Origin: Escherichia coli
Lineage (GTDB): Bacteria; Pseudomonadota; Gammaproteobacteria; Enterobacterales; Enterobacteriaceae
Direction: 5' to 3' (one strand)
Assembly: GCF_041886205.1 (NCBI RefSeq)
Contig: NZ_CP169029.1
Length of the DNA stretch: 64,000 bases
The notes beneath the pieces were generated by a model, which saw only the letters and a list, made by a program, of their open reading frames with translations, did no database searches and was not told where the DNA came from. Positions 3,685-55,331 of this stretch are shown here, in pieces. Positions within the stretch are counted from its first letter, which is position 1; each line of letters starts with the position of its first letter. A program made the position numbers and the translations under genes.

Positions 3685-3773
3685 CATTCATCGCCAATTT
3701 ATTGGGCATATTTTTTCCTTAAGTTTTAGGAATTTTTTATTATTTACTTTGGGGCCTGGAGACAGGAAAAATT

Positions 3774-5159
3774 ATGCTGACATTCATTGAACTCCTTATT
3801 GGGGTTGTGGTTATTGTGGGTGTAGCTCGCTACATCATTAAAGGGTATTCCGCCACTGGTGTGTTATTTGTCGGTGGCCTGTTATTGCTGATTATCAGTG
3901 CCATTATGGGGCACAAAGTGTTACCGTCCAGCCAGGCTTCAACAGGCTACAGCGCCACGGATATCGTTGAATACGTTAAAATATTGCTAATGAGCCGCGG
4001 CGGCGACCTCGGCATGATGATTATGATGCTGTGTGGCTTTGCCGCTTACATGACCCATATCGGCGCGAATGATATGGTGGTCAAGCTGGCGTCAAAACCA
4101 TTGCAGTATATTAACTCCCCTTACCTGCTGATGATTGCCGCCTATTTTGTTGCCTGTCTGATGTCACTGGCCGTCTCTTCCGCAACCGGTCTGGGTGTTT
4201 TGCTGATGGCAACCCTGTTTCCGGTGATGGTAAACGTTGGTATCAGTCGTGGGGCAGCAGCTGCCATTTGTGCCTCCCCGGCGGCGATTATTCTCGCACC
4301 GACTTCAGGGGATGTGGTGCTGGCGGCGCAAGCTTCCGAAATGTCACTGATTGACTTCGCCTTCAAAACGACGCTGCCGATCTCAATTGCTGCAATTATC
4401 GGCATGGCGATCGCCCACTTCTTCTGGCAACGTTATCTGGATAAAAAAGAGCACATCTCTCATGAAATGTTAGATGTCAGTGAAATCACCACCACTGCTC
4501 CTGCGTTTTATGCCATTTTGCCGTTCACGCCGATCATCGGCGTACTGATTTTTGACGGCAAATGGGGTCCGCAATTACACATCATCACTATTCTGGTGAT
4601 TTGTATGCTGATTGCCTCCATTCTGGAGTTCCTCCGCAGCTTTAATACCCAGAAAGTTTTCTCTGGTCTGGAAGTGGCTTATCGCGGTATGGCAGATGCA
4701 TTTGCTAACGTGGTGATGCTGCTGGTTGCCGCTGGGGTATTCGCTCAGGGGCTTAGCACCATCGGCTTTATTCAAAGTCTGATTTCTATCGCCACCTCGT
4801 TTGGTTCGGCGAGTATCATCCTGATGCTGGTATTGGTGATCCTGACAATGCTGGCGGCAGTCACGACCGGTTCAGGCAATGCGCCGTTTTATGCGTTTGT
4901 TGAGATGATCCCGAAACTGGCGCACTCTTCCGGCATTAACCCGGCGTATTTGACTATCCCGATGCTGCAGGCGTCAAACCTGGGCCGTACCCTTTCGCCC
5001 GTTTCTGGCGTAGTCGTTGCGGTTGCCGGGATGGCGAAGATCTCGCCGTTTGAAGTCGTAAAACGCACCTCGGTGCCGGTGCTTGTTGGTTTGGTGATTG
5101 TTATCGTTGCTACAGAGCTGATGGTGCCAGGAACGGCAGCAGCGGTCACAGGCAAGTAA
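3774..5159 (+). CDS. dcuC: anaerobic C4-dicarboxylate transporter DcuC
   Basis: 461-aa polytopic membrane ORF matching DcuC over full length. Confidence 0.95.
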   Translation: MLTFIELLIGVVVIVGVARYIIKGYSATGVLFVGGLLLLIISAIMGHKVLPSSQASTGYSATDIVEYVKILLMSRGGDLGMMIMMLCGFAAYMTHIGANDMVVKLASKPLQYINSPYLLMIAAYFVACLMSLAVSSATGLGVLLMATLFPVMVNVGISRGAAAAICASPAAIILAPTSGDVVLAAQASEMSLIDFAFKTTLPISIAAIIGMAIAHFFWQRYLDKKEHISHEMLDVSEITTTAPAFYAILPFTPIIGVLIFDGKWGPQLHIITILVICMLIASILEFLRSFNTQKVFSGLEVAYRGMADAFANVVMLLVAAGVFAQGLSTIGFIQSLISIATSFGSASIILMLVLVILTMLAAVTTGSGNAPFYAFVEMIPKLAHSSGINPAYLTIPMLQASNLGRTLSPVSGVVVAVAGMAKISPFEVVKRTSVPVLVGLVIVIVATELMVPGTAAAVTGK

Positions 5160-7507: not shown

Positions 7508-7886
7508 TGTTTTCCTTGCGGGTTGTCCCGAGCCTCTTTGACGGATGTAATTAAAATGTTGAATCAAAATACATAGATATTAAATATAATCGTGGCAAAT
7601 TTTATTCATTAAATCAATTAAATCACTTAAACCTGCGGGGCATTTCGTAATTACATTAATTAAAAAACTTAAAACCATTAAATAAATAAAAAACCACTAA
7701 CTCTATGTGAAATAAATCAAAATTTCACGCTGCAATACTCCTTAGGATGTATAGCGAAAGGAGAAAAAGATATACCTCGATCGCCCCCCTTTCTCCCAAG
7801 TGAAAATAAAAGGTTATCAGTTTGCAACATCGAACAACATTCGTTGCAAATCGATAACAACATGCACCTTCAGGATACTATTTATT

Positions 7887-22007: not shown

Positions 22008-22910
22008 ATGGCCAATCTCTACGACCTGAAAAAGTTCGACTTAAATCTTCTTGTCATCTTTGAGTGCATTTATAAACACTTAAGCATAAGCAAGGCTGCT
22101 GAGTCATTATATATCACTCCATCAGCAGTGAGTCAGTCGTTACAACGCTTACGTGCGCAATTTAATGACCCTTTATTCATTCGCTCAGGAAAAGGTATCA
22201 CGCCAACTACGACAGGGTTAAATTTACACAATCACCTTGAGAAAAACCTCAGAGGTCTAGAGCAAACAATCAATCTTGTTAATAAATCGGAAGTAAAGAA
22301 AAATTTTATTATCTACGGTCCTCAGCTCATCTCCTGTTCTCATAACCGCATGCTGATCCGCTGCCTACGGCAAGATACCTCGGTCGAGATTGAGTGCCAT
22401 GACACACTTATTTCAGCCGAGAATGCTGAAGAACTGTTGGTTCATCGCAAAGCCGATCTGGTGATCACTCAAATGCCAGTGATCAGTCGTTCCGTCATTT
22501 GTATGCCATTGCATACGATTCGTAATACCCTAATTTGTAGTAATAAACATCCCCGGATTACAGATACCAGTACTTACGAACAAATTATGGAAGAAGAGTT
22601 CACCCAATTAATTTCCAAATCATCGGGGCTTGATGACATTCAAATGGAAATAGACGAGAGGTTTATAAATCGTAAAATTGCCTTTCGTGGCTCCTCTTTA
22701 TTGGCGATCATAAATAGCATTGCGATTACAGATTTGCTAGGAATAGTTCCCTTTGAACTTTATGAATCCCACCAAGAATCTCTTAATTTAAAGGAAATAA
22801 AACTAGAGCACCCCCTACCCTTGGTTAAGCTTTACATTTGTTACAACAAGACTTCTCTAAACAACCTGGCATTCTCACGATTCATTGACAGATTGAATGA
22901 TAATTCTTGA
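22008..22910 (+). CDS. ybdO: LysR-family transcriptional regulator YbdO
   Basis: 300-aa ORF with N-terminal LysR HTH (SISKAAESLYITPSAVSQSLQRLR); markedly AT-rich coding sequence. Confidence 0.9.
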   Translation: MANLYDLKKFDLNLLVIFECIYKHLSISKAAESLYITPSAVSQSLQRLRAQFNDPLFIRSGKGITPTTTGLNLHNHLEKNLRGLEQTINLVNKSEVKKNFIIYGPQLISCSHNRMLIRCLRQDTSVEIECHDTLISAENAEELLVHRKADLVITQMPVISRSVICMPLHTIRNTLICSNKHPRITDTSTYEQIMEEEFTQLISKSSGLDDIQMEIDERFINRKIAFRGSSLLAIINSIAITDLLGIVPFELYESHQESLNLKEIKLEHPLPLVKLYICYNKTSLNNLAFSRFIDRLNDNS

Positions 22911-23055
22911 TATATAGATTCAGAGAGAGGCTACATCCTTTCATTTCTATTCATTTCATCAATAAAAAATAAAATACTCTACCTTACAGGACTTACTTTA
23001 TAATTAACGACCTTATCTCACTGATCACCCTGTAACGTTCAGAGAGCGTCTTTAG

Positions 23056-24277
23056 ATGTCTATTTATAAAATTCCTCTTCCACTCAATATTCTGGAAGCT
23101 GCACGAGAGCGTATTACCTGGACACTCAATACCCTACCCCGCGTTTGTGTCTCATTTTCTGGCGGCAAAGACTCTGGTTTAATGCTGCATCTGACAGCCG
23201 ACCTTGCCCGACAAATGGGCAAAAAAATCTGCGTTTTGTTTATCGACTGGGAAGCGCAGTTCTCATGCACTATCAACTATGTTCAGTCACTACGCGAGTT
23301 TTACGCCGATGTCATCGAAGAGTTTTACTGGGTTGCGCTCCCGCTTACGACGCAAAATTCCCTTTCACAATACCAACCCGAATGGCAGTGCTGGGAACCT
23401 GATGTCGAATGGGTGCGTCAGCCCCCGCAAGATGCGATAACCGATCCTGACTTTTTCTCCTTTTACCAGCCAGGCATGACCTTCGAACAATTTGTACGTG
23501 AGTTTGCCGAATGGTTTTCACAAAAACGTCCGGCGGCGATGATGATCGGCATCCGTGCGGATGAGTCCTACAATCGTTTTGTCGCCATCGCCAGTTTAAA
23601 TAAACAACGTTTTGCCGACGATAAACCCTGGACTACAGCCGCGCCAGGCGGTCATAGCTGGTACATATACCCCATCTACGACTGGAAAGTCGCCGATATC
23701 TGGACCTGGTATGCTAAAAATCAAAGCCTCTGTAACCCACTGTATAATCTGATGTATCAGGCAGGTGTCCCTCTGCGTCATATGCGAACTTGCGAACCTT
23801 TTGGCCCGGAGCAACGGCAAGGATTATGGCTCTATCACGTCATCGAACCGGATCGCTGGGCGGCCATGTGCGCACGAGCCAGCGGAGTAAAAAGTGGCGG
23901 CATTTACGCCGGACATGACAACCATTTTTTATGGACATCGTAAAATCCTCAAGCCGGAACATTTAGACTGGCAGGAGTATGCATTATTGCTACTCAGCAG
24001 CATGCCGGTGAAAACAGCTGAACATTACCGTAATAAAATCGCCATTTATTTGCACTGGTATCAGAAAAAAGGCATCGAGGTTCCACAAACCCAACAAGGG
24101 GACATTGGCGCGAAAGATATCCCCTCCTGGCGGCGAATATGCAAAGTTTTACTCAACAACGATTACTGGTGCCGGGCATTATCATTTAGCCCCACAAAAG
24201 CGAAGAATTATCAGCGTTATAACGAACGGATAAAAGGAAAACGTCAGGAATGGGGGATACTATGCAACAACGATTAA
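23056..24277 (+). pseudogene. ybdN: ybdN (PAPS reductase-like protein) disrupted by a +1 frameshift
   Basis: frame-1 ORF 23056-23943 (295 aa) and frame-2 ORF continuing to 24277 overlap at 23894-23943 around a T6 run (23926-23931); joining them with one base removed gives 406 codons. Confidence 0.75.
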
Positions 24278-24879
24278 CGCAGGATTTAACCCAATTTCTC
24301 GCCAGCTTGCCGGAAGACGATCGCATCAAAGCGATTAATGAAATCCGCATGGCGATCCATCAGGTAAGTCCTTTTCGGGAAGAGCCGGTGGATTGTGTTT
24401 TGTGGGTCAAAAATGATCAGCTTGTGCCAAATGATTACAACCCAAACAACGTGGCACCGCCCGAGAAAAAATTGCTGAAAAAATCCATTGAAACTAATGG
24501 TTTTACCCAACCCATTGTGGTGACCAACACGACAGCCAATTCACTTGAAATCGTTGATGGTTTTCACCGCCATGAAATCGGTAAAGGATCATCATCATTA
24601 AAACTACGCTTAAAAGGTTATTTACCGGTGACCTGCCTGGAGGGGACGCGTAATCAGCGCATCGCCGCGACTATTCGTCATAATCGCGCTCGTGGACGCC
24701 ATCAAATCACCGCCATGTCGGAAATCGTCCGTGAACTTAGCCAGTTGGGATGGGACGATAATAAAATTGGCAAAGAGCTGGGAATGGACAGCGATGAAGT
24801 GCTGCGCCTGAAGCAAATTAACGGCCTGCAAGAGTTGTTTGCCGACCGTCAATATTCCCGCGCCTGGACGGTTAAATAG
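24250..24879 (+). CDS. ybdM: ParB/sulfiredoxin-like domain protein YbdM
   Basis: 209-aa ORF MGDTMQQRLTQDLTQFLASLPEDDRIKAINE...; overlaps ybdN 3' end by 28 bp. Confidence 0.88.
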   Translation: MGDTMQQRLTQDLTQFLASLPEDDRIKAINEIRMAIHQVSPFREEPVDCVLWVKNDQLVPNDYNPNNVAPPEKKLLKKSIETNGFTQPIVVTNTTANSLEIVDGFHRHEIGKGSSSLKLRLKGYLPVTCLEGTRNQRIAATIRHNRARGRHQITAMSEIVRELSQLGWDDNKIGKELGMDSDEVLRLKQINGLQELFADRQYSRAWTVK

Positions 24880-26040
24880 CTAAAGCTGGCGCAGGCGTTC
24901 AGCTGCTGCCAGCAACGTCGATTCCTTCTTGGCAAAACAGAGACGAATCAGTTTATGTGGGAAGGGATCGGCGCAAAACACCGATAGCGGAATCGCCGCT
25001 ACGCCGTGCTCCTGCGTCAGCCACTGGCAAAACTCAACATCATCCAGGGTAGATACGGCGCTGTAATCCACCAGCAAAAAGTATGTGCCTTCGCACGGTA
25101 AAATCTCCAGCCGACTTTCATTTAAGGCATTTACCAGAATATCGCGCTTCTGGCGATAAAAGTCCGGTAACGCAAGATAATGCTCAGGTTCGGCACGTAG
25201 CATATCCGCAAGCGCCAGCTGTGCCGGGGTATTCACCGAAAAGGTCAGATACTGATGTACCTTGCGAATTTCGGCACTGATGGGCGCTGGCGCAACGCAA
25301 TAACCCACTTTCCAGCCGGTCATATGATAGGTCTTGCCAAACGATGACACCGCCACCGCCCGCTCACGCAACTGCGGATGCGCCAGCACACTGGCATGGC
25401 CCTGTTGTGAAAAGTTGATGTGCTCGTAGACTTCATCGCTAATGACAAAAATCTCGTGCCCGGCGATCGCCTGGCACAAAGCGGCGAAATCAGCCTGCTG
25501 CCAGACAGTTGCACTGGGGTTATGCGGAGTGTTGAGGATCACCAGTCGGGTGCGCTCGCTTAACAATGCGGCAAATTCCTGCCAGTCAACGCGAAAATGC
25601 GGTGGTTGCAGTGCCATACGCTTCACTATTCCCCCAGAAAGCGCGATGGCGGGGGCGTAACTGTCATAGCTGGGATCAAAACAAATCACTTCATCGCCAT
25701 TGCGCACCAATGCGGTAATCGCCGCGTATAACGCCTCCGTCGCCCCTGCCGTTACGGTGATATCGCTGTCGGCATCCGGTTGATAGCCATATAGACGTTC
25801 CGTTTTCTGAGCAATCGCCTCGCTCAAGGCCTGCACACCGCTCATGGGCGCGTATTGGTTTGCCCCCTGGGCAACGTGGTACGCCAGTCGCTCTTGTAAA
25901 TAGCGCGGACCATCAAAATCAGGAAAGCCTTGCGAAAGGTTAATCGCCTGGTGTTGCTGCGCCAGCGCGCTCATCTGGGTGAAAATAGTGGTGCCAAGTT
26001 GTGGAAGTTTGCTTTGTGGAATCAGAGGGTTATTTGTCAT
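24880..26040 (-). CDS. ybdL: PLP-dependent methionine aminotransferase YbdL
   Basis: 386-aa ORF MTNNPLIPQSKLPQLGTTIFTQMSALA... aminotransferase class I fold. Confidence 0.93.
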   Translation of the reverse strand: MTNNPLIPQSKLPQLGTTIFTQMSALAQQHQAINLSQGFPDFDGPRYLQERLAYHVAQGANQYAPMSGVQALSEAIAQKTERLYGYQPDADSDITVTAGATEALYAAITALVRNGDEVICFDPSYDSYAPAIALSGGIVKRMALQPPHFRVDWQEFAALLSERTRLVILNTPHNPSATVWQQADFAALCQAIAGHEIFVISDEVYEHINFSQQGHASVLAHPQLRERAVAVSSFGKTYHMTGWKVGYCVAPAPISAEIRKVHQYLTFSVNTPAQLALADMLRAEPEHYLALPDFYRQKRDILVNALNESRLEILPCEGTYFLLVDYSAVSTLDDVEFCQWLTQEHGVAAIPLSVFCADPFPHKLIRLCFAKKESTLLAAAERLRQL

Positions 26041-49998: not shown

Positions 49999-50089
49999 TT
50001 CGCCCGCAGCCATCACTGACCGCGGGCGAAAGTGTAAAGCAGGTGCCTTACCACCCTGACCTGACAACCGGATATGCGGGGATTACTCC
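49999..50089 (-). repeat. hok mRNA 3'-end segment, copy 1 (contains hairpin CGCCCGC-N14-GCGGGCG), cut off from hokE by IS186-A
   Basis: 91-bp block about 98% identical to 51849-51941; ends in the IS186 target duplication. Confidence 0.7.
50080..50089. repeat. 10-bp target-site duplication of IS186-A (GGATTACTCC; second copy 51429-51438)
   Basis: identical decamer directly abutting both IS186-A ends. Confidence 0.85.
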
Positions 50090-51428
50090 CATAAGCGCTA
50101 ACTTAAGGGTTGAACCATCTGAAGAATGCGACGCCTCGGTGCCTCGTTAAGACGATGCCTCGCGTTCTTCAATTGCGTTTTGTAGGCTGTCAGGGATACT
50201 GTCCCACGAATGGCCACCTGTAAGCTCCAGATGACCATTTTTGTTATTCTCCACAACGAGTTAGTTCTTCTTTTCGGATCCGGCACTTCTGGGGGGGAAA
50301 TCCAGCGATGGCTGGATTATGTCGTCAATTAAAAATGCGGCGAGTAGATTAGCAAATATCCACGCTTTCGCGAGTTCAGGTTCCTTTGCACGCAAAGCAT
50401 CCAGGTGCAGCAAACTTTTGAGCCGCTTAAAAGCCAGTTCAATTTGCCATCGCAGACGGTAACAATCAGCCACTTGCTCTGCTGAATATTCATCTTCCGG
50501 TAATGATGTTAGCAATAGCACATGGCCCGCTGCTTCCAGCGTTTCCGCCTGAACTACTCGTCCTTTTCGACGATTCTCGCTGAGCAGTCGGGTTTTACTG
50601 ATTAATGCTTTTTCGGGAGGAAGTGATACGGCAATGAGACGTGCCGGAAAGGGAGCTCCGGCTTTTTTATTACCTGAATTGCCTATCATTACAGTGGTTT
50701 CACCGTTCTTACCGCAATCCAGCCCGCGCAGAAAACCCATCATGTCAAAGCGCATTCCTTCTGCAGTTAACCAGCGCAATCCTCGCCAGTGAACCCGGAC
50801 GATATAATCAGCTTCTCCAAAAGCAAGTGAGCGGATACATTCGGGACGCGAACCGAATCCCCGGTCAGCAATGCGTATCTCGTCTGCCGTTTGCGCAAAT
50901 CGGTCCAGCCGTTCAGCGTCTCTGCTGTCGGTTAGCTCAAAATCAGTGAACTGACAGGTATGAGGATCATATCCCATATGTAGTCGCCATTCAGCGCTGC
51001 CGCCCCCGGGCGCACTGATTGCTGTTCCATCGACAAGACGCAATCTCTTTCCGCTTGTACAACCCGTAACTGCGGCGCGTACAGCAAGTGTTTGTGCGGC
51101 AAGTATGCCAAACCAGTCGGCGGCATTCCGCAGCCGCTTCAGGAGAGCCACGTCAGATAATGTTGCAACGTCATGGAGCTGAGCCCATGCAGTGACTTCA
51201 CGTAATGACATCCCCCCGGGGCCGTAAGCCAGCCCCAGACGTAGCAGAGTTGCAGCATCACGAATTTCGCGGCGGCGGGTTAGAGCCCCGGCATTACGTG
51301 CCGAAGTATCCAGTTCTTCGGGCTTACCAATATGGGCCAGAATTGCTGACCAGTTATCGTGAGAGTAATTCATCGGCACGTTAAATCATATCAGGCGTAA
51401 TACCACAACCCTTAAGTTAGCGCTTATG
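50090..51428 (-). mobile_element. IS186 (IS4 family) copy A
   Basis: 1339 bp; perfect 23-bp terminal inverted repeats CATAAGCGCTAACTTAAGGGTTG at 50090-50112 and 51406-51428; encodes InsL. Confidence 0.95.
50261..51373 (-). CDS. insL: IS186 transposase InsL
   Basis: 370-aa ORF MNYSHDNWSAILAHIGKPEELDTSARNAG... Confidence 0.95.
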   Translation of the reverse strand: MNYSHDNWSAILAHIGKPEELDTSARNAGALTRRREIRDAATLLRLGLAYGPGGMSLREVTAWAQLHDVATLSDVALLKRLRNAADWFGILAAQTLAVRAAVTGCTSGKRLRLVDGTAISAPGGGSAEWRLHMGYDPHTCQFTDFELTDSRDAERLDRFAQTADEIRIADRGFGSRPECIRSLAFGEADYIVRVHWRGLRWLTAEGMRFDMMGFLRGLDCGKNGETTVMIGNSGNKKAGAPFPARLIAVSLPPEKALISKTRLLSENRRKGRVVQAETLEAAGHVLLLTSLPEDEYSAEQVADCYRLRWQIELAFKRLKSLLHLDALRAKEPELAKAWIFANLLAAFLIDDIIQPSLDFPPRSAGSEKKN

Positions 51429-51449
51429 GGATTACTCCCCGCACAGCGG

Positions 51450-51602
51450 CTACTTCTTCGGTTCGTAAGCGAGAACAGCCTTAAACTCAATATTACGTTC
51501 CTTTACCGTAAACTCACACAACGAGTCTCCGACCAGAAGCGTAAATCCCAGCACCGTCAAACACAGCACTATGACTGCCACAAGGGCATATTTCGTCAGC
51601 AT
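51450..51602 (-). CDS. hokE: Hok-family type I toxin HokE (an in-frame upstream mok extension runs to 51701)
   Basis: 50-aa [53 protein letters not shown]; ATG at 51602. Confidence 0.9.
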
Positions 51603-51848
51603 GTTTATATTGCCTCCATGCGAAGAAGGGACTACCATCCGAGTTGTTGAGGTTCGGAGTGGCAGCCCCAGGATTGATAGAAATTTCTCCTGGGGCTTCA
51701 TCTTTCCAGACCTCAGAGTTAACCTGAAACCGGAAAGCTTCAGGCACCCGCCGTTATCTTACCCTTCCTTAGCAAAATAGCTGTTTATTTATACAGTGAG
51801 TCCTGTTTCGGACTTCTGTCAGCAAAACTCATCATTGCTCTTAAAACG

Positions 51849-51941
51849 AAATCGCCCGCAGCCATCACTGACCGCGGGCGAAAGTGTAAAGCAGGTGCCT
51901 TACCATCCTGACCTGACAACCGGATATGCGGGGATTGCTCC
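51849..51941 (-). repeat. hok mRNA 3'-end segment, copy 2, cut off from the second hok copy by IS186-B
   Basis: near-identical to 49999-50089 (2 SNPs). Confidence 0.7.
51932..51941. repeat. 10-bp target-site duplication of IS186-B (GGATTGCTCC; second copy 53281-53290)
   Basis: identical decamer abutting both ends of IS186-B; differs by one base from the IS186-A duplication. Confidence 0.85.
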
Positions 51942-53280
51942 CATAAGCGCTAACTTAAGGGTTGTGGTATTACGCCTGATATGATTTAACGTGCCGATGA
52001 ATTACTCTCACGATAACTGGTCAGCAATTCTGGCCCATATTGGTAAGCCCGAAGAACTGGATACTTCGGCACGTAATGCCGGGGCTCTAACCCGCCGCCG
52101 CGAAATTCGTGATGCTGCAACTCTGCTACGTCTGGGGCTGGCTTACGGCCCCGGGGGGATGTCATTACGTGAAGTCACTGCATGGGCTCAGCTCCATGAC
52201 GTTGCAACATTATCTGACGTGGCTCTCCTGAAGCGGCTGCGGAATGCCGCCGACTGGTTTGGCATACTTGCCGCACAAACACTTGCTGTACGCGCCGCAG
52301 TTACGGGTTGTACAAGCGGAAAGAGATTGCGTCTTGTCGATGGAACAGCAATCAGTGCGCCCGGGGGCGGCAGCGCTGAATGGCGACTACATATGGGATA
52401 TGATCCTCATACCTGTCAGTTCACTGATTTTGAGCTAACCGACAGCAGAGACGCTGAACGGCTGGACCGATTTGCGCAAACGGCAGACGAGATACGCATT
52501 GCTGACCGGGGATTCGGTTCGCGTCCCGAATGTATCCGCTCACTTGCTTTTGGAGAAGCTGATTATATCGTCCGGGTTCACTGGCGAGGATTGCGCTGGT
52601 TAACTGCAGAAGGAATGCGCTTTGACATGATGGGTTTTCTGCGCGGGCTGGATTGCGGTAAGAACGGTGAAACCACTGTAATGATAGGCAATTCAGGTAA
52701 TAAAAAAGCCGGAGCTCCCTTTCCGGCACGTCTCATTGCCGTATCACTTCCTCCCGAAAAAGCATTAATCAGTAAAACCCGACTGCTCAGCGAGAATCGT
52801 CGAAAAGGACGAGTAGTTCAGGCGGAAACGCTGGAAGCAGCGGGCCATGTGCTATTGCTAACATCATTACCGGAAGATGAATATTCAGCAGAGCAAGTGG
52901 CTGATTGTTACCGTCTGCGATGGCAAATTGAACTGGCTTTTAAGCGGCTCAAAAGTTTGCTGCACCTGGATGCTTTGCGTGCAAAGGAACCTGAACTCGC
53001 GAAAGCGTGGATATTTGCTAATCTACTCGCCGCATTTTTAATTGACGACATAATCCAGCCATCGCTGGATTTCCCCCCCAGAAGTGCCGGATCCGAAAAG
53101 AAGAACTAACTCGTTGTGGAGAATAACAAAAATGGTCATCTGGAGCTTACAGGTGGCCATTCGTGGGACAGTATCCCTGACAGCCTACAAAACGCAATTG
53201 AAGAACGCGAGGCATCGTCTTAACGAGGCACCGAGGCGTCGCATTCTTCAGATGGTTCAACCCTTAAGTTAGCGCTTATG
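51942..53280 (+). mobile_element. IS186 (IS4 family) copy B, inverted relative to copy A
   Basis: 1339 bp; same 23-bp terminal inverted repeats at 51942-51964 and 53258-53280; encoded protein identical to copy A. Confidence 0.95.
51997..53109 (+). CDS. insL: IS186 transposase InsL
   Basis: 370-aa ORF identical to the copy-A transposase. Confidence 0.95.
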   Translation: MNYSHDNWSAILAHIGKPEELDTSARNAGALTRRREIRDAATLLRLGLAYGPGGMSLREVTAWAQLHDVATLSDVALLKRLRNAADWFGILAAQTLAVRAAVTGCTSGKRLRLVDGTAISAPGGGSAEWRLHMGYDPHTCQFTDFELTDSRDAERLDRFAQTADEIRIADRGFGSRPECIRSLAFGEADYIVRVHWRGLRWLTAEGMRFDMMGFLRGLDCGKNGETTVMIGNSGNKKAGAPFPARLIAVSLPPEKALISKTRLLSENRRKGRVVQAETLEAAGHVLLLTSLPEDEYSAEQVADCYRLRWQIELAFKRLKSLLHLDALRAKEPELAKAWIFANLLAAFLIDDIIQPSLDFPPRSAGSEKKN

Positions 53281-53301
53281 GGATTGCTCCCCGCACAACG
53301 G

Positions 53302-53454
53302 CTACTTCTTCGGTTCGTAAGCGAGAACAGCCTTAAACTCAATATTACGTTCCTTCACCGTAAACTCACACAGCGAGTCGCCGACCAGAAGCGTAAATCC
53401 CAGCACCGTTAAACACAGTACTATGACTGCCGCAAGGGCATATTTCGTCAGCAT
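53302..53454 (-). CDS. second Hok-family toxin paralog (ORF intact; mok leader interrupted by IS150)
   Basis: 50-aa [53 protein letters not shown], one substitution versus HokE. Confidence 0.75.
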
Positions 53455-53551
53455 GTTTATATTGCCTCCATGCGAAGAAGGGACTACCATCCAAATTGTT
53501 CAGGTTTGGGTAGGTAGCCCTAGGGTGTACTGACCCCAAAAAGTTGGACAG

Positions 53552-54403: not shown

Positions 54404-54921
54404 TTTTTCGTGGGATGAGCTAAGGCTTTCAGCTTTTTTAGATACACAAGCCGCGTTTCAAGAAATCGAACTTGCCTTTCAAGATCCTCAATGCGTCGGT
54501 CTTTTGACAGCTCCAATGCTGATGCCGCTTTTTCTGGATCAACTGATATTGCAATGTTTCTTTTGGTGCCAATCTTGAGCGCGCGTAAACCAGCTTCTCC
54601 GCGATCTTCATAAACCTTCAGCCACCTGGCTACAGAACCACTACCAGCAAGCATAAAGTGAGCAGCAGCCTGATTAAGGGACATGTGCTGCTCGATCACA
54701 GCTTTCACGACCTTAATACGCAACTCTGGATCAGCACTAACGCCTTTAGGTTTGGGAATTAAACCTTTTTCTCCATGTTTTTCATAGAGGGCAACCCATG
54801 TCCTGACCTGGGTTCGGGGGACACCAAAACGTGCCGAGATGATCCTGTAACCATCATCAGTTGTGAAGTAGTGATTCACGACTTCAAGGCGCTTTTCAAA
54901 AGGGTATTTTGGCTTTGACAT
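54400..54921 (-). CDS. insJ: IS150 OrfA (InsA; HTH DNA-binding)
   Basis: 173-aa ORF MSKPKYPFEKRLEVVNHYFTTDDGYRIISARF... Confidence 0.9.
   Translation of the reverse strand: MSKPKYPFEKRLEVVNHYFTTDDGYRIISARFGVPRTQVRTWVALYEKHGEKGLIPKPKGVSADPELRIKVVKAVIEQHMSLNQAAAHFMLAGSGSVARWLKVYEDRGEAGLRALKIGTKRNIAISVDPEKAASALELSKDRRIEDLERQVRFLETRLVYLKKLKALAHPTKK
54433..54439 (-). promoter_or_regulatory. programmed -1 ribosomal frameshift heptamer (A AAA AAG) joining IS150 orfA to orfB
   Basis: CTAAAAAAG near the end of orfA in the orfA/orfB overlap, as described for IS3-family elements. Confidence 0.6.
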
Positions 54922-55331
54922 ATTAGGGGCTATTCCATTTCATCGTCCAACAAAATGGGTGCAGTACAGGGTTGATAGAAATATCTCCTGGGGCTTCATC
55001 TTTCCAGACCTCAGAGTAAACCTGAAACCGGAAAGCTTCAGGCACCCGCCGTTATCTTACCCTTCCTCAACAAAATAGCTGTTTATTTATACAGTAAATC
55101 CTGTTTCGGACTTCTCACTCCTCATTTAATCAACTGAAGCTGAACCCGTTTTTTCTGCATGCCTCAATCGTCAAAATTCTTCGCCGCCAGCCAGCTAAGA
55201 CGCAACTGGTCACATTGCAAAAGTAGCCAAATTACTTCAGTCACCATCACCAAAAAAAAGAAACATTCCAGAACTTCCGCATCTCGCCCAGCCGCTCCCA
55301 CTTCTATACTGAATGGAAAACGCCAACATAA

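Follow-up and report, generated by a model that had tools for sequence, protein, structure and literature searches.

Does the split reading frame of ybdN in the stretch of Escherichia coli DNA analysed here (64,000 nt, hereafter the window) reflect a gene that has genuinely been lost, an error made in sequencing or assembling it, or a sequence at which slippage still allows the full-length protein to be made? These three readings were left side by side in a preliminary description of the locus, which had proposed that the gene is divided by a +1 frameshift arising from one extra base in a T homopolymer. When the list of open reading frames was set against annotated E. coli genomes, the plus strand of the window was found to carry dsbG-citR-ybdN-ybdM-ybdL, and the citR-ybdN-ybdM-ybdL order of its ORFs is the annotated order in K-12 and in five other genomes, which places the split gene where a YbdN orthologue belongs. 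The features needed for what follows are these:

22008–22910, plus strand: citR (ybdO), an intact gene for the LysR-type repressor of ybdNM, 300 aa, identified by its ORF and by synteny.
22964–22969, plus strand: an A6 run between citR and ybdN, shorter by one A than in VE-T9, MB53 and ET201.
23056–24277, plus strand: ybdN (PAPS reductase / DUF3440 family), with 1222 nt against the normal 1221 and read here as a pseudogene.
23056–23943, plus strand: ORF1, ATG start and TAA stop, 295 aa comprising 291 native residues followed by LWTS.
23789, plus strand: a derived C (Ile245 to Thr) that marks the window's sub-branch of the T6 clade.
23879, plus strand: a C (Ala275) common to 6EVA, which is T5 and intact, and to all T6 carriers.
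23884–23887, plus strand: GGAG, a putative, fortuitous Shine-Dalgarno-like site for ORF2, 6 nt 5' of the GTG at 23894.
23894–24277, plus strand: ORF2, GTG start, in the +1 frame, 127 codons.
23925–23930, plus strand: the T6 homopolymer, where the extra nucleotide was inserted; close relatives with an intact gene have T5, and K-12 has TTTCT.
23941–23943, plus strand: the premature TAA in the original ybdN frame.
24250–24879, plus strand: ybdM, intact, encoding an IbrB-like / ParB-like N-terminal domain protein of 209 aa.

As the repressor of ybdNM in K-12, CitR (YbdO) keeps expression of the operon very low except where citR is deleted; this repression was all that we found in the literature on YbdN function (PMC9068703). 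Both neighbours of ybdN are intact in the window. The citR stretch is identical to that of strain wlxctx60, in which the counterpart protein is WP_000002432.1, and the exact YbdM protein of the window is present on 401 contigs. The start of ybdM overlaps the native end of ybdN by 28 nt (24250–24277). A scan of 22850–24400 for promoters and terminators returned no more sites than were found in shuffled sequence.

The ORF list bears out the main points of the proposed frameshift, in that the frame opening at 23056 closes at 23941–23943, a second frame runs on to 24277, and the two overlap solely within 23894–23943, a segment holding a single T6 run. This run lies at 23925–23930, one base to the left of the 23926–23931 originally given for it. 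When one T is deleted, the result is, as predicted, a 1221-nt ybdN ORF of 406 codons without an internal stop, and 406 aa is indeed the length of YbdN in K-12 MG1655 (b0602, 1221 nt). The repaired protein is similar to the K-12 protein along its full length, with 395 of 406 aa identical and 95.0% nucleotide identity, and the reference does not end at the position of the first stop. The two genes also share their locus, the synteny dsbG-citR-ybdN-ybdM-ybdL and their Pfam architecture; they differ in that K-12 encodes Phe291 as TTC and has no T5 run, whereas in the window copy the 1-nt insertion cuts the protein short at residue 291. In alignments with the ybdN of VE-T9, MB53, ET201, 6EVA and AW1.7, T6 versus T5 is the sole length difference within the gene, which upholds a frameshift by a single extra base. 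The lesion is placed by direct comparison with orthologues and carries no statistical claim, so that chance is not at issue. Because T6 interrupts the frame and leads to the stop at 23941–23943, where a functional YbdN would be read without interruption, we class the window copy as a pseudogene of the YbdN family.

The context of the run differs between ybdN alleles. K-12 reads CAT TTC TAT at the lesion site, and one group of ybdN alleles, a minority in E. coli, has TTT for Phe291, giving CAT TTT TAT and with it the T5 run; because K-12 has TTC at this position, the T5 run is itself confined to that minority group.

What is lost from the protein can be read from the domains of the nearest intact allele, on which Pfam was run. 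As expected of a YbdN orthologue, PAPS_reduct (PF01507; residues 30–234, E 8e-14) is followed there by DUF3440 (PF11922; residues 237–344, E 2e-22, and 352–383). Searches of YbdN with NCBIfam and PADLOC gave only weak, sub-threshold PP-loop matches (CysH, CysD, DndC, BrxP), and a PDB search found no close relative. Some database entries for fragments of the two proteins are named 'immunoglobulin-binding regulator' or 'IbrB-like domain-containing protein'; judged by such names and general knowledge, YbdN/YbdM may be comparable to IbrA/IbrB, in which a PAPS-reductase-like protein and a ParB-like protein form the same two-gene architecture.

On the window transcript, ribosomes would read His290-Phe291 and then Leu-Trp-Thr-Ser before halting at the TAA at 23941–23943. 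The upstream product had been put at 291 residues, a figure that is right for its native part, although the LWTS tail brings the whole to 295 aa. This product retains the PP-loop SGGKDS (residues 35–40), PAPS_reduct (30–234) and DUF3440 up to about its 55th residue, and it lacks the C-terminal 115 residues, which make up most of DUF3440. From this truncation we infer that YbdN function is lost. The output of ybdM may be affected as well: because the 306 nt that separate the new stop from the start of ybdM at 24250 would no longer be translated from ybdN, expression of ybdM is probably reduced, through lost translational coupling and possibly Rho polarity.

A more novel alternative is that the T6 allele is not dead at all, being either split, with ORF1 and ORF2 cooperating, or leaky, with a +1 slip of a few percent rebuilding YbdN; we regard this as improbable. 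Were it true, a successful clade with more than 100 sequenced isolates would keep a reduced YbdNM activity. For the split gene, both ORFs would have to be translated and their products to reassemble, with translation of ORF2 keeping ybdM coupled. The sequence offers a plausible ORF2 start, GGAG-N6-GTG, from which the C-terminal part might still be made, and from its residue 12 (Phe291) onwards ORF2 is native C-terminal YbdN, with the rest of DUF3440. It is also unchanged on 117 contigs, and ybdM remains intact. However, the break after residue 291 falls inside the DUF3440 match (237–344) rather than between domains, and so young a clade would leave ORF2 unvaried in any case. Elsewhere, moreover, the operon seems to be dispensable: ybdN is disrupted at codon 119 in other lineages, in one of which ybdM is split as well. 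A functional split gene at this locus is therefore very unlikely.

These other lineages provide several independent cases of ybdN loss. A 118-aa YbdN product occurs on 182 contigs and stems from stops of two kinds at Trp119: TGG to TAG in contig L015 (position 2856), and TGG to TGA in contigs L016 and L017 (both at position 2857). The TAG and TGA stops sit on different haplotypes and thus arose independently. In L017 (SRR35793696), which carries a Trp119 stop, ybdM is also split, into 75 + 120 aa (3694–4322). In a further contig, L018 (ERR474100), ybdN is frameshifted at codon 125 (about position 2873) by a change from C5 to C6. Together these cases show that the CitR-silenced ybdNM operon has been lost repeatedly in natural E. 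coli, and they support the view that it is dispensable in many lineages.

Leaky or programmed +1 recoding would instead restore the native 406 aa from the T6 allele itself, through slippage of tRNA-Phe on CAU UUU UUA or omission of a U by RNA polymerase. After a +1 shift at UUU-U the pairing is again perfect and the native HFYGHRK follows, and UUA, in the A site, is a Leu codon that E. coli uses little. In two respects, the need for a +1 shift and the re-pairing of the P-site codon (UUU to UUU), the T6 site is like prfB-type frameshifting. The 121 nt around the slip site (23900–24020) are also predicted to fold more stably than shuffled sequence (MFE -33.6 kcal/mol, z = -3.0, 1 of 200 shuffles as good), with a predicted long-range helix that pairs 23907–23917 with 24001–24010 and encloses the T run. 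This helix, however, is largely present in intact alleles including that of K-12 and is thus not linked to the frameshift, and an Rfam search around the frameshift found no element. Unlike prfB, moreover, the shift at T6 is not conserved among orthologues, every other ybdN examined being a plain ORF and K-12 being without a T run; the A-site codon is a sense codon and no stop; and the 15 nt upstream of the slip site, GGACAUGACAACCAU, hold no GGAGG-like element that could act as a Shine-Dalgarno-like stimulator. T6 is instead a recent insertion in one clade. Slippage by RNA polymerase fares no better, as appreciable transcriptional slippage needs runs of about 8–9 or more, longer than T6. Nothing suggests programmed recoding at T6, and restoration of YbdN by a +1 shift of either kind is highly doubtful.

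Since a single assembly says little about whether a homopolymer call is right, the T6 allele was followed through public sequence collections. When ybdN was compared by megablast with 5,426 complete E. coli genomes, 5,412 had matches, 5398 of these aligning over at least 80% of the gene, and those examined proved to be single ORFs. The eight closest matches (at least 99% identity) span 1221 nt, with the exception of wlxctx60 at 1222 nt. A search with a 90-nt segment gave 109 genomes at 95% identity or above and 5,283 at 90–95%, with the exact T6 segment in just one of the 5392 RefSeq complete genomes that have the segment, again wlxctx60. Among these RefSeq complete genomes no second origin of T6 was seen, all matches above the level of T5 plus two SNPs spanning 89 nt, wlxctx60 aside. 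The same survey showed ybdN to be unusually divergent for its region, with 8 of the 5412 genomes at 99% identity or above and 3854 at 90–95%, against 95–99% in nearly all genomes for the surrounding 24 kb (region 12000–36000), a difference that suggests old, distinct ybdN allele groups.

This rarity among complete genomes, together with the fact that single-base homopolymer indels are the commonest error of long-read assemblies, is what one would expect if the genome were truly T5, its ybdN intact and the sixth T an artefact of sequencing or assembly. T6 recurs, however, in the complete genome of another strain, in at least three assemblies of SRA runs, in one assembled metagenome and among older GenBank drafts, that of E. 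coli N1 for instance. The complete genome is that of wlxctx60 (NZ_AP045833.1, RefSeq complete, from Japanese black bear faeces), which has an identical T6 and in which ybdN (AC6IW3_RS05620) is flagged 'frameshifted' by PGAP. Over the approximately 61 kb that can be aligned, the window and wlxctx60 differ by 10 substitutions and, at 50.3–53.3 kb, in IS content, and are on that account separate strains, yet there are zero differences in homopolymer length between them. The DNA of T6 was also seen in the assemblies SRR29303307, SRR21143307 and SRR25411868 and in the ENA metagenome scaffold ERZ28646962; with 0, 3, 1 and 8 substitutions, respectively, relative to the window over the stretch compared, these four contigs represent distinct genotypes. 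In ERZ28646962, seven substitutions are clustered within 118 nt of ybdL (equivalent to 25368–25485 in the window), in what looks like a short recombination patch.

The remaining T6 contigs, about 110 beyond the six checked at the DNA level, were surveyed indirectly, by exact protein match. The exact 127-aa ORF2 occurs on 117 public contigs (137 index blocks; NCBI, ENA and Logan), including E. coli N1 (EKI54904.1), and can only exist where the insertion is present, because its first 11 residues cross the T run in the shifted frame. For ORF1, the 295-aa product of the window type was found on 3 Logan contigs and the Ile245 type, as in wlxctx60, on 110 contigs, again including E. coli N1 (EKI54905.1), where the same T6 insertion underlies the split ORFs ECN1_0537/0538. 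Intact T5 sister alleles are present on 158 + 3 contigs; since T5 was called normally on all 161, there is no systematic miscalling at the T run. On the approximately 113–117 contigs that carry it, T6 comes with distinct linked SNPs and is phylogenetically nested. An artefact would be expected in one assembly or technology and without regard to phylogeny, but T6 is linked to a haplotype in RefSeq, GenBank, Logan and ENA alike. This evidence consists of independent assemblies of sequencing runs and so comes close to that of read pile-ups. With six T in independent short-read assemblies on different haplotypes, the proposal of a homopolymer sequencing error is effectively refuted, and a T5 genome behind the T6 call is barely credible.

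A phase-variable contingency locus resembles the present case in that a mononucleotide run sets the frame, and we reject it on finding that the run is short (5–6 nt), that its T6/T5 state follows the SNP tree and that the six T6-clade sequences examined are all T6 and the outgroups all T5, with no ON/OFF mixture. The earlier label of slippage-prone sequence thus holds in the mutational sense, T5 having become T6 once and then been inherited, and finds no evidence in the programmed or phase-variable sense.

We therefore return to a genuine, vertically inherited pseudogene, to which we assign a probability of roughly 0.9, and for which the linked markers supply a history. Both 23879C and A6 at 22964–22969 are common to 6EVA, which has T5, and to all T6 carriers; residue 275 is Ala in 6EVA and the T6 carriers as against Val in the outgroups VE-T9, MB53, ET201, AW1.7 and K-12. 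Because 23879C is shared by a T5 genome and the T6 carriers, the insertion arose on a defined haplotype. The wlxctx60 pseudogene has the same T6 at the same site and on the same haplotype, and is one substitution apart from the window within ybdN: the window has the additional Ile245Thr (23789C), as well as another IS arrangement 27 kb away. This C is found only in the window's twig of the T6 clade, all other genomes compared having T. Judged by these markers, the T6 allele is nested, forming a sub-clade within the 23879C/A6 lineage and containing in turn the 23789C twig. That one substitution, which is non-synonymous, is all that has happened within ybdN in the T6 clade since the insertion, too little divergence for a dN/dS test in so young a clade.

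Other run lengths also vary among these genomes. The A run at 22964–22969, in the citR-ybdN promoter region, is A6 in the window, 6EVA and the T6 carriers and A7 in VE-T9, MB53 and ET201. At 7784–7789, in the intergenic citC-dpiB spacer, the window has C6 where 6EVA has C5, and an intergenic A run beside ybdK (at approximately 55252) is one A shorter than in 6EVA; at both sites wlxctx60 is as the window.

The difference in IS content involves an IS4-family element, named IS421 from the annotation of relatives, of which the window has two inverted copies of 1369 nt, 100% complementary and each with a 372-aa transposase, at 50075–51443 and 51927–53295. The copies bracket a 483-nt segment of hok toxin type, and their flanks are duplicated (51406–51672 / 53258–53524 and 50000–50112 / 51852–51964). 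In wlxctx60 a single copy is present, with IS1A inserted in it; 6EVA lacks the element and carries two hokE genes. IS150 (IS3 family) follows at about 53.5–55 kb, and a short 'hypothetical protein' beside it is annotated as frameshifted in both wlxctx60 and 6EVA (NZ_AP045833.1 1137839–1138056, corresponding to about 54920–55137 in the window).

For the pseudogene of ybdN, we propose that a synonymous change from TTC to TTT at Phe291 likely came first and created a short, slippery T5 run; and that one sub-lineage then gained a single T, probably by slipped-strand mispairing during replication. T6 has since been inherited by all descendants of that sub-lineage, which include wlxctx60, E. coli N1 and the strain of the window as well as more than 100 sequenced isolates. 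The loss is likely to have been neutral or nearly so, because the operon has no assigned function and is normally near-silent under CitR, and neutrality also fits the independent ybdN knock-outs found elsewhere in E. coli. Of the preliminary reading as a genuine, strain-specific pseudogene, the first half stands and the second does not, as the allele is lineage-wide, extending to wlxctx60, E. coli N1 and the approximately 113–117 contigs described above.

The lesion is, in sum, an ordinary, lineage-specific pseudogene, one that PGAP has already annotated in wlxctx60. The split should accordingly be annotated as one ybdN pseudogene and be neither recorded as two genes nor corrected as if it were an assembly error, and T6 together with 23879C provides a clean marker of an E. 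coli sub-lineage. Beyond correct annotation the finding matters little, save that the repeated loss of ybdNM gives a modest hint that E. coli can dispense with this operon.
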